64,000 bases of DNA from Candidatus Moraniibacteriota bacterium (lineage in GTDB: Bacteria; Patescibacteriota; Minisyncoccia; Moranbacterales; GWC2-37-73): positions 241,936 through 305,935 of the forward strand of contig DAOOTD010000001.1 in assembly GCA_035390125.1 (NCBI GenBank). Direction: 5' to 3'. A model generated the notes under the pieces. It saw only the letters and a list, made by a program, of their open reading frames with translations, was not told where the DNA came from and did not search any database. Each line of letters begins with the position of its first letter. Within the stretch, counting starts at the first letter, position 1. Position numbers and translations under genes: made by a program. Shown in pieces: positions 16,113-22,737 of the stretch.

Positions 16113-16670
16113 TTAATGCTTGTATTTACTGGGCGTTTCTGATGAAATGTGAGCCATTTCCTCAGACCTTTCTCCTTCCGACCCAACTATTTCAATAATT
16201 GCAAATGATCCACCCGACAAGGCTTTCTCTATCTGGCATTTAGCACAATCGCATTCTGCGCCCCCATTTTCTGCCATCTTGAAAATTCTGAAACCACTTC
16301 TGAGAATAATTTTAGTCCCTTTTTCCCAGAATCCGGTTCTTGTCCTGAATGAATTCCAGAGAATTGACTTTACCAAAATAACCGTCTCCATCTTTGTTTC
16401 TATTTCTTTTATCCTTGCTTTTAACCTCCATGAATCTCCTTGATAATTTTCAAGAGATTTTAAAATTTTCTCCGCTTCATCTGAAATTTTTGTCATGTAA
16501 GTTAATAAAGCCTTTTCATAATCACTTAATATTCCAAGCTGGACATCCCCCTCTTCTGGATGAAATTTAACATCTACGAAATCTCCACTTTTAAGTATTT
16601 TAAAAACTTCTAAGAGAAAATTTCCTTCTAAAGCCTTAGCTATTATTCCTTTTTTATTATCTCCTTTCAA
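16113..16670 (-). CDS. hypothetical protein (185 aa) with C-terminal CxC...CxxC cluster; first gene of GC-richer island
   Basis: ORF reading ...AENGGAECDCAKCQ.... No family recognised. Confidence 0.4.
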   Translation of the reverse strand: MKGDNKKGIIAKALEGNFLLEVFKILKSGDFVDVKFHPEEGDVQLGILSDYEKALLTYMTKISDEAEKILKSLENYQGDSWRLKARIKEIETKMETVILVKSILWNSFRTRTGFWEKGTKIILRSGFRIFKMAENGGAECDCAKCQIEKALSGGSFAIIEIVGSEGERSEEMAHISSETPSKYKH

Positions 16671-16798: not shown

Positions 16799-17398
16799 TT
16801 AGTGCTTATTTTTTATGTGTCCCTTAGTCGGCCCATCAAGCATAATTTTAAAATCTGCTGAAGTATAAGCACACCCTGGTTTTGGCCATTCATCATAATC
16901 AGCACAGCAGTCTTCGTCCATGTGATTCTTATTTTTTCTTGAGCTCCATCCCGGCTTGTCTTTTTCAGCGGGACAATGGGTACCTTTTTTAATATAATCT
17001 GACCTATTATTTTTGGGAGCAGAATTTATTGATTGATGATTGGCATTTTGGGATAATTTTCTTGCAGAATTTTCTTTTTCAATAGCCTCTCTTAATTCTA
17101 TGATTCTATCCGGTTTTTTATTAAACAGTATCTTATCATCACTTTTATGTATAATATTATACTTCTTTGGATTATTGCCATATGTTATATAAGGAACAGA
17201 ATACATATTTACTGTTTCATTTTTTACTGTTTTTTCTCCAATAATAACCTCCTGAAAATATTTCTCGGCCTGATTTAATGTCGTCACTGTTTTGACGCCT
17301 TCAATAAAATTTTCCTCAGCGAATGAAACATCAGACACTAAAAATCCTGCAAAAACACATGAAGTAATCAAAGAATATCTGAAAATACCATTTCGCAT
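16799..17398 (-). CDS. secreted hypothetical protein with Cys-rich C-terminus
   Basis: Signal-peptide-like N-terminus (MRNGIFRYSLITSCVFAGFLVSDVSFA) and a C-terminal cysteine cluster (...HCPAEKDKPGW...DEDCCADYDEWPKPGCAY). Confidence 0.45.
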   Translation of the reverse strand: MRNGIFRYSLITSCVFAGFLVSDVSFAEENFIEGVKTVTTLNQAEKYFQEVIIGEKTVKNETVNMYSVPYITYGNNPKKYNIIHKSDDKILFNKKPDRIIELREAIEKENSARKLSQNANHQSINSAPKNNRSDYIKKGTHCPAEKDKPGWSSRKNKNHMDEDCCADYDEWPKPGCAYTSADFKIMLDGPTKGHIKNKH

Positions 17399-17477: not shown

Positions 17478-17503
17478 TAAGATAAAGCCCTATTGATTGC
17501 TCA
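17478..17503 (-). terminator. rho-independent terminator after the repeat-protein gene
   Basis: Perfect 11-bp stem AGCCCTATTGA / TCAATAGGGCT with loop TTGC, followed by a T-rich stretch on the minus strand. Confidence 0.6.
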
Positions 17504-17557
17504 ATAGGGCTCATGTTCTGATTTACAGAAAGTTTTCTTTTGTACATTTGCGGCTTA

Positions 17558-18817
17558 TTACTGTTGTACATTTATATTTTTGTAGCAGACTAATGCTATC
17601 ATTCTGAATTCGCTATTCAGATCTTTGTGGAATTTTTTAATTATTTCAGGAGGAATATTTTTCATGATTGATGGCATTATTTCACGGCAATGAGCCAGCA
17701 CCATGCCTTTGAAATCTTCCGGACAATCATTAAAACGATCACTTAACTCATCAATGGATATAATCGTCTTTAAAACATTACTGTATTGGTTTCCGATAAG
17801 CCCATTGAATGTTTCGTCACAATTGTCAAATAAATCTTGAAGTTTTTTCAGTGATGTTTCTTTTTTGATCAACTGGAGAGCATAATGAGCATACAATGGC
17901 ACAAAATGTTCTTCACATTCTTCATGAAGATTATCCAGCTGTTCAAAGGACTCGATTTTACTCAACAATTTGTCGTATGGATCAAAATAGAAATCTTCGA
18001 ATTCTTCCGGACAGTCATTGAAATGTCTTTCGAGATCTTCAATTGATTCAACCGTATATAATAATTTCTGATACGGCCCCTGGAAAAGATCATTGAAAGC
18101 ATCAGGACAATTTCCACGTCGTTCTTCAAGTTCTTCAAACGAAGTGATAGCATCCAAAAGTTCTCCGTAGCGCTGCTTGATAAGTTCATCGAATTGATCC
18201 TGGCCAAGACAATTTCCGTATTTCTCTTCCAGCTCTTCAAGAGAAGCTTCTTTCAGAAATTGCGGAAAAAGTTCCTTATACCTAGAAGTAATGGCTTCGT
18301 CAAATTCTTCAGGACAATTTTCATATCTATCTTCCAGTTCTTCCAAAGAAACTTCTTTCAAAAGTCGTCCATAAAATTCTTTAATAAGTTCATTAAATCT
18401 ACCTGGATTAAGACCATTTCCAAACTCGTCTTCCAGCTCTTCCAGAGAGGCTTCTTGTAGAAATCGGGGGAAAAGGTCTTCATATCGAGCAATAATGATA
18501 TCCTGAAAATTATCAAAATTCATGCTGTTGGCCTCTTTCACCTGTTCAATATCATTGATAACTGAAAGAAGTTCTTTTAGGCGAACACCGATAAGAAACT
18601 TAAATTGCTGGGGACATTTATCGTTTTGCCGACTAAGTTCTTCAAGATCCTGAATGTTAGCCAGAATATCCTTGAACCCATATTCTGATATTGGCTCATT
18701 TGATTTGGATGATGAAATCGGATTTTTTGTAATCGTTTTTGAGATTGGTTCATCAACAAAAAGATTCTCCCACCAGTTGTCCAGCCGCTCCAATAATCTT
18801 ATTAATGCTTTTAACAT
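17558..18817 (-). CDS. acidic tandem-repeat protein (about 10 repeats of 32-35 aa, each with one conserved Cys)
   Basis: Repeat consensus roughly S-[LI]-EELE-[DE]-x-[FY]-x-[ND]-C-P-[ED]-[ED]-F-x3-[IL]-x2-[RQ]-Y-x-[EK]-L-[FL]-P-x-F-L-K-EA. Examples: NCPEEF, NCPDAF, DCPEEF, NCDETF, DCPEDF, KCPQQF. Confidence 0.6.
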   Translation of the reverse strand: MLKALIRLLERLDNWWENLFVDEPISKTITKNPISSSKSNEPISEYGFKDILANIQDLEELSRQNDKCPQQFKFLIGVRLKELLSVINDIEQVKEANSMNFDNFQDIIIARYEDLFPRFLQEASLEELEDEFGNGLNPGRFNELIKEFYGRLLKEVSLEELEDRYENCPEEFDEAITSRYKELFPQFLKEASLEELEEKYGNCLGQDQFDELIKQRYGELLDAITSFEELEERRGNCPDAFNDLFQGPYQKLLYTVESIEDLERHFNDCPEEFEDFYFDPYDKLLSKIESFEQLDNLHEECEEHFVPLYAHYALQLIKKETSLKKLQDLFDNCDETFNGLIGNQYSNVLKTIISIDELSDRFNDCPEDFKGMVLAHCREIMPSIMKNIPPEIIKKFHKDLNSEFRMIALVCYKNINVQQ

Positions 18818-18953
18818 ATCTATATCCTGCCTCCTTTAAATGGTTTATTTTTTAGCTTGTAAAATAACTTTTGAACAATTTACTGTATCAAATTATTATT
18901 TATTTGTCAATTGTCCATAAATTGTTCATATATAACGTATCTAAATAAAGAAA

Positions 18954-19012: not shown

Positions 19013-19672
19013 CTATGCCGACACTTCTTCAAACACTGCCTTGGTGTGTTCAGCGTTAGCGAATTTAGCATAAAAAAGACGAACATTCACGGTGCCTTTG
19101 GTCAGACTGAGTAAGGTTTTCGCCACCTTACCCAAATCAATCTTGTGCCGATTTACCATATTTCCGGCTACGCGCAGGAATTGATTTCCTATAATATCTT
19201 TCATGCTCTCGTACTTTTTGCAATCCTCATGGTTTATAAGGACAATAAGCTTAATCGAGTCATGTTTACTTAAAAACAGACTGATTATATCACTTACTAC
19301 CTTAAACTCTTTGGGGAAAGTTTCGCGTTCGGAAAATGAAGCGGCCGCACCAGGTATGACTACCGGAATATATTGTCCTGATGCCAATCCCAATTCATTG
19401 TGGATAAATTGATCAAAGGCGTTTTGGAAACGCGGATCATTACAATGAATTACGATTGCTTCCGGATGACTTATGTTTAAGTCATATTCCTTGACCACTG
19501 ACTGCATTTGTTCTTCATTCCTACCCTTACCGGACAAATTTGAATCACCATTGATTCCGCTTTCTAATGCTTTATTGTTTGCCTGTTGCCGGTTATTTTC
19601 TTTCCTATCGGGGAAAGGTATTGGCTTTTTTTCTAATGAGATACCACTTTTCCCTTTTTGATTTTTATCCAT
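19013..19672 (-). CDS. hypothetical protein (219 aa), third gene of the NfeD-flotillin operon
   Basis: Low-complexity N-terminus, then a conserved-looking core ...AIVIHCNDPRF...YIPVVIPGAAASF.... No family recognised. Confidence 0.45.
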   Translation of the reverse strand: MDKNQKGKSGISLEKKPIPFPDRKENNRQQANNKALESGINGDSNLSGKGRNEEQMQSVVKEYDLNISHPEAIVIHCNDPRFQNAFDQFIHNELGLASGQYIPVVIPGAAASFSERETFPKEFKVVSDIISLFLSKHDSIKLIVLINHEDCKKYESMKDIIGNQFLRVAGNMVNRHKIDLGKVAKTLLSLTKGTVNVRLFYAKFANAEHTKAVFEEVSA

Positions 19673-19767
19673 TTAACCCTCCTATTTCTTGATAGTAAAG
19701 TGCACGGGAACAGATTCGCCCCCGTGCACAAATTTCATCATCACGCCCTATCGAGCGTTATGATTTT

Positions 19768-21360
19768 TCACTTTTTTTCTTCAGATCCTGCATTTTTGTC
19801 GGCAACCATTGATAATGCTTCACCAATGTTTACGCCGGCTTTTTTGAACAGATCTTCCAGGTCAATACCTTGGGTTTTCAAAATTCTGACAACATTGGCT
19901 ACTGTCTGAGGAACTATGCTTCCCATGGTCTGAAGACCTTCACCTTTTCCGCCCATATCAACGATTTTGATGTTGTCGATGCTGCCAAAAGGTAAGGCCA
20001 CGCTCTTGAAAATCGATTCTCCGACTTTGGCCAGTGCTTCTCCACCTTTGTCTACCAGGGCCGGCAAGCGGTCGAGGATAATAATCAGACGCGAGGCATC
20101 ATTCATTTGAGCCAATGCTTCAGCCATGGCCTTGGTACCAGTAGCTTCAGCGGTAAGTTTCTTTTCCACCTTGGCCGCTTCGCCTTCCGCCGATGCCATC
20201 AAAGTAGCTCTGATCTTATTGGCTTCACCTTCGCCTTCCATTGTTTGTGAAACCTTATCAGCTTCAGCTTTGATTTGAACTTTTTTGGACTCGCCTTCCG
20301 CTTCCGTAATTGTGGCTTGCTTATTTGCATCAGCGTCAATAAGTTTTTTCTTCTTGGCTGCTTCGGCCGGCATAACAACGGTGGCTTCGAGTTCTTTCCC
20401 TACCCTTATAACTTCTTTTTCCTGCACATGCGTCTGGGCTTCTTTTTCTGCCGCATCACGTTCAGCTTCCTTGACTTTGAGAACTTTTGACTGATCAGCC
20501 AATTCAATATTTTTTGCCATCTCTGCTTTGGCATTTGCAGTTTCAGTAATGACTTTCATATCGGCAATTTTTACATCGCGGTTCTTATTTGCTTCCGCGA
20601 CCTTGGCTGCATTTTCAGCAGTAACTATCGACGCATCACGTTCGGCATCAGAGACTTTAATTGTTGATTCTCTTTGCGCCTCAGCAACTTTAATGTCTGC
20701 ATCACGTTTAGCTTCGGCCACTGTCTGTTTGCCCAGCGAATCAATGTATCCGTACTGGTCATTGATATCCTGGATAACCAAAGTGATGATGCGCACGCCA
20801 AGAAGCTTTAATTCGGCGCCGGATTCTTCCAGAACTTTCTTATTGAATTCGTCACGCCGTCTCAGTAATTCCTGGATATCCAGTTTACCGATAATTGACC
20901 GCAAATGACCTTTCAGGATGTTTTGGATAAATTTGTTGATTTCTTCTTCAGATTTTCCCAGAAATGCTTGTGCAGCATTGACCAAGTCTTCGAACTCAGT
21001 CGATAACTTGCAGGTTGCCACACCTCTGACTTCAACTTTTACGTTATCTTTATTGGGAATAGATGATTCGTTTATTTCCACCTGAAAGGCGGATGTCGAC
21101 ATTTCCTGGTAATTTTCTACGAATGGGATTTGTACCTTGCCGCCGCCACATACTACCTTAAATCCGAGTGAATATTTTTTGTTTTCAGGAGCGGGACCGG
21201 TATATGTATATTGTCTTCCATAAAAAACACCGACTGCATTTGGCGGAATTTTTTTGTATCTGCTTGCGATGTACTTAAGAGCAAGTATGATACCCACAAC
21301 AACCAACAAAATCATGCCCGGAACAAACGCCTTACTTACAATACTTGATAAAATTTCCAT
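19768..21360 (-). CDS. floT: flotillin-like SPFH/band-7 protein (FloT/YuaG family)
   Basis: N-terminal TM hairpin, an SPFH domain, a long Ala/Glu-rich repeat coiled-coil (AEAKRDADIKVAEAQRE...) and the flotillin C-terminus. Confidence 0.8.
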   Translation of the reverse strand: MEILSSIVSKAFVPGMILLVVVGIILALKYIASRYKKIPPNAVGVFYGRQYTYTGPAPENKKYSLGFKVVCGGGKVQIPFVENYQEMSTSAFQVEINESSIPNKDNVKVEVRGVATCKLSTEFEDLVNAAQAFLGKSEEEINKFIQNILKGHLRSIIGKLDIQELLRRRDEFNKKVLEESGAELKLLGVRIITLVIQDINDQYGYIDSLGKQTVAEAKRDADIKVAEAQRESTIKVSDAERDASIVTAENAAKVAEANKNRDVKIADMKVITETANAKAEMAKNIELADQSKVLKVKEAERDAAEKEAQTHVQEKEVIRVGKELEATVVMPAEAAKKKKLIDADANKQATITEAEGESKKVQIKAEADKVSQTMEGEGEANKIRATLMASAEGEAAKVEKKLTAEATGTKAMAEALAQMNDASRLIIILDRLPALVDKGGEALAKVGESIFKSVALPFGSIDNIKIVDMGGKGEGLQTMGSIVPQTVANVVRILKTQGIDLEDLFKKAGVNIGEALSMVADKNAGSEEKK

Positions 21361-21412
21361 GAATTCTTTCCTCTCTTTCGTTTGATTTTATAATTTGGGT
21401 TTATGCTACTTA

Positions 21413-21934
21413 TTATACAGTTTTCACTGTAAGTTTTCCGCCAACAACCTTTTCAACGATAACTGTTTTGTCTTTATCTATCGGTTTACCGTCATTGGAA
21501 CAGGCCATAAACGTACAGTAACGTCCATTCATGGTCATTCCTACTTCTCCGATGGCGCCTTGATCAATAGGCGTAACAACCGTAGCTGTTAATCCTACCG
21601 CGTCAGAAGTATTAACTACCGATGAGCCTTGCTGTTTGTAAATTGCTTTATAAACAAGCCACATTACGATAGCAAAAAAAACTCCTGAGCTTGCGCCGAC
21701 AAAAGATGCATTTGGATACGACAAATCATAGTAACGAGCTACCGCACCTGCGGCACCAAAGGTCATTATGAATGTCGATATCACCTTCATGGAAAAAATA
21801 CTGACCGTTGATTCGCCACTTCCGCCGGCATCATGACTTACGTCATGATCATGATCCATATCATGGTCACCGAAAATGTGGGATCCAATGGTAAGTAATA
21901 ATCCTGACAACGCAATTGCAACAAAAATCAACAT
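21413..21934 (-). CDS. nfeD: NfeD-like membrane protein, short form (YuaF-like), flotillin partner
   Basis: Two N-terminal TM helices and a C-terminal OB-fold-like beta domain. An AAAGGAGGG RBS precedes the internal ATG at 21934. The tracked ORF start at 22084 is probably too long. Confidence 0.65.
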   Translation of the reverse strand: MLIFVAIALSGLLLTIGSHIFGDHDMDHDHDVSHDAGGSGESTVSIFSMKVISTFIMTFGAAGAVARYYDLSYPNASFVGASSGVFFAIVMWLVYKAIYKQQGSSVVNTSDAVGLTATVVTPIDQGAIGEVGMTMNGRYCTFMACSNDGKPIDKDKTVIVEKVVGGKLTVKTV

Positions 21935-22095
21935 AAAAAACCCTCCTTTCTTTTTCTCTTTATTCGTTGTATTTTGTTTGTAAAAATTTAATTGTAAAAC
22001 AACGCTATTGCAAAAATTATTGCAACCTTCTTGTATAGCAGATAAATATAATTTTGTCAAGTGGTGAAAGTATTTTATTATCATTTTCTTTGCAA

Positions 22096-22137
22096 TAAAA
22101 AATAAGGCTCAAGCAAGCCTTATTTTTATCGCGTACA
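22096..22137. repeat. direct repeat copy 1 (hairpin AATAAGGCT-CAAGCA-AGCCTTATT plus ATCGCGTAC)
   Basis: About 40 nt are identical to 22628-22669. Confidence 0.7.
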
Positions 22138-22627: not shown

Positions 22628-22669
22628 AAAAAAATAAGGCTCAAGCAAGCCTTATTTTTATCGCGTACC
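22628..22669. repeat. direct repeat copy 2; also the terminator immediately 3' of tRNA-Glu
   Basis: Same about 40 nt as 22096-22137. The repeat overlaps the last 3 nt of the tRNA. Confidence 0.7.
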
Positions 22670-22737
22670 ACCACGGGGAATCGAACCCCGGTTACCAGGA
22701 TGAGAACCTGGCGTCCTAGCCGCTAGACGATGGTGGC
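22666..22737 (-). tRNA. tRNA-Glu (anticodon CUC)
   Basis: Minus strand reads GCCACCATCGTCTAGCGGCTAGGACGCCAGGTTCTCATCCTGGTAACCGGGGTTCGATTCCCCGTGGTGGTA. Manual cloverleaf fold with G1-U72. CCA is not encoded. Confidence 0.75.

Follow-up and report, generated by a model that had tools for sequence, protein, structure and literature searches.

The repeat protein and its predicted fold

The window is the whole stretch of DNA analysed here, 64,000 nt of contig DAOOTD010000001.1 of Candidatus Moraniibacteriota, and all coordinates are positions within it. The gene in question encodes an acidic protein built from tandem repeats, each of which is predicted to be a pair of helices. It occupies exactly the open reading frame (ORF) to which an earlier note on this DNA had pointed; the strand, left unstated there, is minus. 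The coding sequence and the parts of the protein are as follows.

17558..18817, minus strand: coding sequence of the repeat protein, 419 aa, stop codon included, supported by the ORF, metagenome copies, diverged orthologues and the AlphaFold2 (AF2) model
18758..18814, minus strand: N-terminal amphipathic helix, residues 2-20, MLKALIRLLERLDNWWENLF, a helix in the AF2 model
18686..18757, minus strand: disordered linker rich in S, T, P and K, residues 21-44; residues 25-39 have a predicted local distance difference test (pLDDT) score <50 and no secondary structure
17657..18652, minus strand: array of 10 helical-hairpin units, residues 56-387, from the unit hidden Markov model (HMM), the unit alignment and DSSP mapped on the units
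17561..17656, minus strand: C-terminal two-helix cap, residues 388-419, with helices at 390-399 and 402-418, common to the orthologue-like members of the family

Self-correlation of the protein (BLOSUM62, against 200 shuffles) gave a periodicity peak at lag 32 with z=10.3 and harmonics at 64 and 96. Super-repeat lags of 68 and 100 were also seen; they reflect the duplication of blocks of two and three units in the N-terminal half. An iterated unit HMM placed ten units at residues 56-387; for nine of these the i-E-values are 1e-13 to 1e-17, while unit 2 is degenerate. About ten tandem repeats had been described in the earlier note, which named a lack of periodicity as the result that would count against them; the array is clearly periodic and the number agrees. 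The proposed unit length of 34-35 aa is matched only roughly and only in the N-terminal units, which have 33-35 aa, while the six C-terminal units have 32 aa. In the same way, the long consensus given there fits unit 4, while the general consensus is shorter, SLEELExxxxNCPxxFxxLIxxRYxELLxxxx. Because no tandem repeat was found at the DNA level in this gene, the units are old and diverged; their pairwise identity to unit 4 is 22-53%.

The protein is as acidic as had been claimed, with 13.6% E, 7.4% D, a net charge of -42 and a pI of 4.48. In each unit, a Ser-capped helix A (about 10 aa) is joined to helix B (15-21 aa) by a Cys-Pro turn of 2-3 residues. A Ser-x-x-Glu capping box starts helix A, a Gly/Asn/Asp C-cap ends it, and Pro-Glu-Glu restarts the chain as helix B. 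Given this capping box, C-cap, Cys-Pro turn and Pro-Glu-Glu, the conserved positions of the unit are mostly hydrophobic core and helix caps.

The structure was predicted by AF2 with a multiple sequence alignment of 10 sequences. The model is all alpha, with a mean pLDDT of 87.8, 275 residues at 90 or above, and a predicted template modelling (pTM) score of 0.63, at which the overall curvature of the solenoid is uncertain. The single-sequence prediction was uninformative (pLDDT 41). Regular units of helix A, a two-residue turn and helix B follow each other in the model, and its best fold matches are designed helical repeats and solenoids of the HEAT, ARM and TOG type. The helix-turn-helix solenoid expected in the earlier note is supported by this prediction, which had been proposed there as a check. 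Judged by the model, we are confident that the repeat protein belongs to the alpha-solenoid architectural class and would be an ordinary member of it.

The N-terminal helix has a hydrophobic moment of 0.70, the maximum of the protein (mean 0.31, sd 0.13), and its L..L...W pattern is common to the orthologues, among which the length of the linker differs. The tail 'EFCEN...LALAC' at the other end was found in the four orthologue-like relatives described below (P0001, P0003, P0004 and P0005). There is no apparent transmembrane segment or signal peptide, and the maximum 19-residue Kyte-Doolittle score is 0.98. The repeat protein is presumably cytoplasmic.

A rare family and its distribution

Word-indexed homologue searches covered 5.8 billion clusters; they were saturated on common LEELE words and gave two relatives. 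An exhaustive HMMER search of 1.84 billion representatives with the 32-position unit profile, the metagenome search that had been suggested for the unit, matched 13 proteins, and ten of them were kept as the family. Four are orthologue-like, with 33-49% identity to the window protein; these keep the N-terminal helix and the C-terminal tail, and the number of units differs among them. The other six (P0002, P0006, P0007, P0008, P0012 and P0013) have the same unit in proteins that are shorter or more distant. The long orthologues are all acidic, with pI of 4.3-4.6 and net charge of -29 to -45. Repeat number varies by block duplication, which is typical for scaffolds.

The other three matches, P0009-P0011, have 21-aa 'SGRFQNCPDGFKTVRTV' repeats, were judged unrelated and were left out of the family. 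These repeats, 'LSGRFQNCPDGFKTVRTVSK', are basic and of a different period, match the unit profile solely through F-x-N-C-P-D-x-F and are probably unrelated.

No relative was found with the family alignment in a GTDB scan of one genome per species, which was pattern-based and not exhaustive, nor in a scan of IMG/VR viral contigs. About 12 metagenome contigs, the longest of 278 kb, encode the identical protein, and its chromosomal surroundings of cell-wall, division and housekeeping genes are identical in them. The glycyl-tRNA synthetase (GlyRS) of the window is 69-75% identical to those of metagenome-assembled genomes (MAGs) of Patescibacteria.

Three side observations were made on these sequences. 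Contigs of four independent samples (L001-L004; JGI, Logan, ENA) are 100% identical to window positions 7558-28817, over up to 21 kb, and the sole difference is one indel in L004; apparently a single clonal population of Moranbacteria is widespread among those samples. The short and near-neutral relatives P0002, P0006, P0007 and P0013 (loci L091-L093 and L095), with 2-10 units, end in a truncated half unit before the stop codon, which reads C-[PS]-x-G-[LM]-[KR]-x-[LVK]-[FY]-[FLIV]. This common ending suggests that they are a distinct subfamily with a conserved hydrophobic C-terminus. In the orthologue ORF of the P0004 type at L009 9698-10786, a basic and unrelated-looking N-terminus of about 100 aa, with a TTG start, stands in place of the amphipathic helix and linker; a frameshift or a wrongly assigned start may account for it, or the N-terminus may truly have been replaced.

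Tests against known families and systems

The repeat had been said not to be TPR, HEAT, PPR or Sel1 as these are commonly recognised, and a clear match to a known repeat family had been named as the finding to look for against this. No such match came from Pfam, NCBIfam or the PDB. With hmmscan against Pfam-A (the whole protein at E<=10; 22 units and 10 members at E<=1) there was no match to TPR, Sel1, PPR, HEAT, ARM, ankyrin or TAL-effector models. NCBIfam gave nothing above cutoff for the repeat protein, and neither the protein nor the profiles of the orthologues and of the unit matched a PDB sequence below E 0.05. We therefore regard the repeat type as a previously undescribed sequence family.

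The scans of Pfam, NCBIfam, PADLOC and PHROGs with the protein, its units and its relatives gave scattered sub-threshold matches to COG5_N, TRCF, Zw10_N, Vps51, Sublancin and Nif11; these matches are driven by the LEELE and RFGxxP-like hairpin motif.

As a separate observation, Pfam TRCF gave weak matches in 3/10 family members, with a best E of 4e-06, and in the window protein the match lies at residues 228-265. The helical hairpin of the Mfd C-terminal domain reads roughly 'ELxDRFGxxPxE', near 'ELEERFGNCPEEF' of the unit, and the likeness is probably a convergent hairpin-capping motif.

DUF2396 was considered and rejected. P0002 scored 29.9 bits against the DUF2396 model (PF09654; cutoff 21), and its best stretch is residues 300-338, one unit, at model positions 73-111 of 157. 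No stretch of P0002 was individually significant, and the score for TIGR02652 was 20.6 bits, where the cutoff is 99.55. Neither the window protein nor any of the eight further members scanned matched DUF2396, so that the likeness would be a shared hairpin motif at most. A literature search on DUF2396, PF20393, and Patescibacteria with flotillin found nothing relevant.

The sublancin match raises the question whether the protein is a glycocin-like substrate, that is, a ribosomally synthesised and post-translationally modified peptide (RiPP), in which the SLEELE...Cys units are leader-plus-core modules and the loop Cys is S-glycosylated or otherwise modified. The window protein has a Sublancin match at E 0.029 (15 bits against 26.9) and one to a sublancin-family glycopeptide model at E 2.7, P0002 has a weak Nif11 match, and a family 2 glycosyltransferase (GT2) gene follows the distant member P0013 at 0-114 nt. 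However, by type this GT2 belongs with the polyprenyl-phosphate sugar synthases (AglJ/PpgS) and is not SunS-like, and no glycosyltransferase, radical SAM enzyme, protease or exporter adjoins the window gene or its orthologues. All these matches are below the curated cutoffs, and a confidently folded solenoid of 419 aa is unlike a peptide precursor. We rejected this explanation because the GT2 is not SunS, no such enzyme stands beside the orthologues and the matches are sub-threshold; it is hardly credible.

The strong charge could also belong to an acidic mimic or effector, which imitates nucleic acid or another polyanion (as anti-restriction and DNA-mimic proteins do) or is exported to the host of an episymbiont. 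Bacteria of the candidate phyla radiation (CPR) live attached to hosts, the negative charge is extreme and periodically arranged, and the family is an orphan with patchy distribution. Against it, PADLOC gave no match to the repeat protein, PHROGs gave only one match at E 0.0085, to a family of unknown function and not above cutoff, the viral contigs gave none, and BFVD held no viral structural relative. Neither a signal peptide nor a secretion-system neighbourhood was seen, the GC content of the gene equals that of its neighbours and the surrounding chromosome, and the gene stands among housekeeping genes. We consider this explanation very improbable.

The cysteine at the turn

At one conserved position of the unit is a cysteine. 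It is present in 8/10 units (C68, C168, C203, C237, C269, C301, C333 and C365), while unit 2 lacks it and unit 3 has Gly there; two more cysteines, C377 and C411, lie outside the column. The claim of one invariant Cys in each repeat, with about nine aligned thiols, was thus overstated. Over 61 aligned units of 11 proteins the column contains C 51 times, A 3, G 2, M 2, S 2 and D 1, and it is among the four most conserved positions of the unit. C203, C237, C269 and C333 are invariant in the five orthologue-like sequences, where they make up 4/44 invariant columns. The Cys content across the family is 2.4-4.0%.

In the AF2 model the column Cys is the first residue of the two-residue turn from helix A to helix B, and it is always at the turn. 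According to the model, each repeat would contribute one thiol to a row that runs down one edge of the solenoid. Going by the typical spacing of solenoids, neighbouring thiols would be too far apart to share a metal or to form disulfides. The unit consensus has a single Cys and contains no CxxC, no conserved His and no second ligand. Since the Cys is always at the turn and its substitutes are mostly small or hydrophobic, we infer that it is primarily a turn or packing residue, a structural 'cysteine ladder'. The substitutes in the alignment (A, G, M, S and D) would suit a small residue for packing or for a turn no less well than one with a chemical task.

The other explanation is a functional thiol ladder. 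Its cysteines could carry persulfide or a metal such as Cu(I), Zn or Fe at many sites, could serve an anaerobic cell as a sacrificial redox buffer, or could line up as sites of covalent attachment. The rationale is that the Cys opens helix B, a position at which the helix dipole lowers the pKa of a thiol. A Cys-Pro placed there is reminiscent of the activated Cys in the CxxC motifs of thioredoxin folds. The Cys content of the family, the presence of Cys in most of the units aligned across these proteins, the invariance of four cysteines at 33-49% identity and the rarity of S, T, D or N in their place all agree with it, and at 3.5-5 kb downstream in the window there are genes for thioredoxin and its reductase. 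However, the unit offers one Cys without a partner ligand, and successive cysteines would be about one repeat rise apart. P0002 retains the fold signature with Cys in only 5/10 units, no thioredoxin genes were found near the orthologues in L005, L007 and L009, and the Pfam and NCBIfam scans gave no match to a metal-binding or redox family. A functional ladder of this kind is in our judgement rather unlikely. In any case, a single strongly conserved Cys at every hairpin turn of an alpha-solenoid is unusual.

Gene signals and neighbourhood

The signals around the repeat gene are as follows.

18882..18910, minus strand: sigma-70-like promoter, TTGACA (18910-18905), 17-nt spacer and TG-extended TACAGT (18887-18882), a consensus match only, 10/12
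18830..18834, minus strand: GGAGG ribosome-binding site, 12 nt 5' of the ATG, read from the sequence
17485..17512, minus strand: intrinsic terminator-like hairpin with a 12-bp stem, a 4-nt loop and a T-rich tail, 45 nt past the stop codon

The TTGACA and GGAGG elements reported in the earlier note are both present, the first at the level of consensus, and an AGGA at 18828-18825 lies closer to the start, 7 nt 5' of the ATG. The terminator reported there is also present, though its stem has 12 bp and not 11. Promoter-like matches are common in the AT-rich DNA (30-35% GC) around the gene; 20 were found against 12.2 +/- 3.6 expected from shuffles, a modest excess. Because they exceed this expectation only modestly, the promoter is weak and supportive evidence only. 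The upstream gene has its own terminator at 18982-18955. With its own promoter and terminators on both sides, the repeat gene looks monocistronic.

Upstream on the same strand are three further genes, and the minus-strand order in the window is NfeD, FloT, CA-like and then the repeat gene.

21413..22084, minus strand: NfeD-like membrane protein, 223 aa, 34% identical to an L005 protein that carries Pfam NfeD_TM
19768..21360, minus strand: FloT-type flotillin (SPFH/Band_7), 530 aa, Pfam Band_7 at 1.1e-24
19013..19672, minus strand: beta-carbonic-anhydrase-like (CA-like) protein, 219 aa, with a weak Pro_CA_2 match and invariant CxDPR and NHEDC

The flotillin aligns over its full length to the NCBIfam FloT model at 241.9 bits, below the cutoff of 700 bits. 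A database entry from a Candidatus Moranbacteria MAG lists the CA-like protein as hypothetical. NfeD and flotillin are a canonical pair whose genes co-evolve in one operon, to which varying further genes are added (PMC2636767), and a role in stabilising unfolded proteins at membrane microdomains has been proposed for flotillin-NfeD (PMC11222466).

The trio of NfeD, FloT and CA-like genes was adjacent in 6/6 lineages examined, high-GC genomes outside the CPR included, at the following coordinates.

Window: 19013-22084, minus strand
L008: 11701-14609
L096: 5662-8504
L097: 5507-8498
L098: 3085-8498
L099: 400-3509

Its third partner is a protein of about 165-220 aa, in which C-x-D-P-R and N-H-E-D-C form a zinc-ligand pattern like that of beta-carbonic anhydrases; no literature was found on a third partner of this kind for NfeD-flotillin.

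In L005/L008 (GC 37%) the order is different: the orthologue P0003 comes first, with NfeD, FloT and CA-like directly downstream. The four proteins are 33-38% identical to those of the window, and the flanking genes are unrelated. Since the repeat gene is placed at the opposite end of the trio, at this identity and between unrelated flanks, the adjacency survived rearrangement. On this gene order, a linkage between the repeat protein and the flotillin module is suggestive.

The neighbourhood can also be explained by a stand-alone acidic solenoid adaptor that serves another process, for example at the cell envelope or in division, with its position beside flotillin inherited or coincidental. A promoter and terminators of its own would suit such a gene, as would the presence of the trio without the repeat protein in four genomes. 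The L009 orthologue lies between infB-rbfA and nrnA-clpP and the L007 orthologue among unannotated genes, and short relatives adjoin SpoIID, a POTRA/FtsQ-like gene or the polyprenyl-phosphate GT2. On the other side, the gene adjoins the three-gene module at opposite ends in two genomes, at about 35% identity and with differing flanks, and chance adjacency would be expected at about 2 in 1000 per genome of about 1000 genes. We regard the stand-alone adaptor as unlikely, although it deserves serious consideration.

Other features near the gene were recorded as well. Directly downstream of the repeat gene are two orphan genes. The first, at 16799-17398 on the minus strand, encodes 199 aa, of which the N-terminus is hydrophobic and resembles a signal peptide and the C-terminus is rich in Cys (HCPAEKD...DCCADYDEWPKPGC). 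The second, at 16113-16670 on the minus strand, encodes 185 aa. Neither has a match in Pfam or PADLOC or a homologue near the orthologues in L005, L007 and L009. An exact 40-bp direct repeat, AAAAAATAAGGCTCAAGCAAGCCTTATTTTTATCGCGTAC, occurs at 22097-22136 and 22629-22668, 532 bp apart, and includes an element that resembles a hairpin terminator. The 3' end of tRNA-Glu (22665-22737, minus strand) directly borders one copy, while the second is just upstream of the NfeD start; the repeat could be a duplicated terminator or the remnant of an insertion at the tRNA.

Interpretation

We propose that the protein is a lineage-restricted cytoplasmic scaffold, an acidic alpha-solenoid that is maybe tethered to the membrane or to flotillin and whose cysteines are mainly structural. 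For this whole package we estimate a probability of roughly 0.45. Our confidence in the modelled fold is much higher, and the estimate concerns what is built upon the repeat anatomy, the predicted solenoid, the rarity and orphan status of the family and the gene neighbourhood.

The soluble protein would consist of the N-terminal amphipathic helix, a linker of about 25 residues, ten stacked hairpins and the two-helix cap. The Glu/Asp-rich helix A of successive units would form a long continuous acidic surface, and a scaffold or adaptor restricted to Patescibacteria may bind a basic or cationic partner along it. The N-terminal amphipathic helix could tether the protein to the membrane or to a partner within the NfeD-flotillin-CA-like module, beside which its gene lies in two lineages. 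The column Cys would act as a structural ladder, by analogy with the Cys/Asn ladders of leucine-rich repeats (LRR) and Cys30 of transcription activator-like effectors (TALE).

Several findings weigh against this proposal. The uncertain curvature of the solenoid is one of them. Cys at 84% of the aligned units is a stronger conservation than is usual for a replaceable packing residue, and the usual N-cap residues Ser, Thr, Asp and Asn hardly ever replace it; these two facts together keep a thiol-specific role open. The adjacency to flotillin was found in only 2/4 lineages with usable context, and L007 and L009 had no flotillin within the available flanks of the orthologue. The promoter and the bracketing terminators of the repeat gene do not indicate co-transcription with the module, and the trio occurs without any relative of the repeat protein in L096-L099, some of which are clearly outside the CPR.

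A bolder idea joins the flotillin linkage with the thiols. The Cys-Pro at the helix B N-terminus of 8-10 hairpins might present a one-dimensional array of thiolates, activated by the helix dipole, at the cytoplasmic face of CPR flotillin microdomains, where it might be a poly-thiol relay or reservoir (for metal, persulfide or redox equivalents) or a rail for covalent attachment. We think this improbable, and would give it less credence than a functional thiol ladder in general. If it were true, such a solenoid would be a kind of cysteine ladder without a described counterpart.

If the scaffold proposal is right, the family is a new one of helical hairpins fit for repeat-protein engineering, with its exact 32-aa register, capped helices and a confident model from ten sequences. 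Leads on the lineage-specific partners that bacterial flotillin modules have in the cytoplasm are few, and the family would be one of them, from the poorly understood Patescibacteria. If the Cys is merely structural and the flotillin adjacency coincidental, it would be another orphan scaffold in an orphan-rich candidate phylum.

Comparison with known systems

The gene order is like that of yuaF-floT-yuaI of B. subtilis, where a lineage-specific extra gene also stands beside the conserved NfeD-flotillin pair (PMC2636767). Unlike the repeat protein, YuaI is a GNAT acetyltransferase, and the two sequences are unrelated; the linkage of the repeat gene is seen in two lineages only, and its transcription is apparently separate.

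The closest architecture for the protein itself is the alpha-solenoid class (HEAT, TPR, Sel1, PPR and designed helical repeats, DHRs), with helical hairpins in tandem. TALE repeats of 33-35 aa (TAL effectors of Xanthomonas, BurrH/MOrTL) are alike in unit length and in having two helices per unit. They also have one conserved Cys (Cys30) at a fixed position of most repeats, within the second helix. TALEs are basic, bind DNA and have a loop with a variable di-residue. By contrast, the window protein has a charge of -42, its Cys is at the turn and it has no match to a TALE-type family in Pfam at E<=10, so that the likeness would be analogy and not kinship.

In LRR of the CC type, a Cys at a fixed position of each repeat is a structural ladder residue (Asn/Cys ladder) and not a ligand. 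These repeats may serve as a model for the structural reading of the Cys by analogy only, as LRR is a beta-alpha horseshoe of 20-29-aa repeats while the window protein is all alpha, and no similarity of sequence or fold between the two was found. The family described here would thus be new in sequence and stand within a known architectural class.

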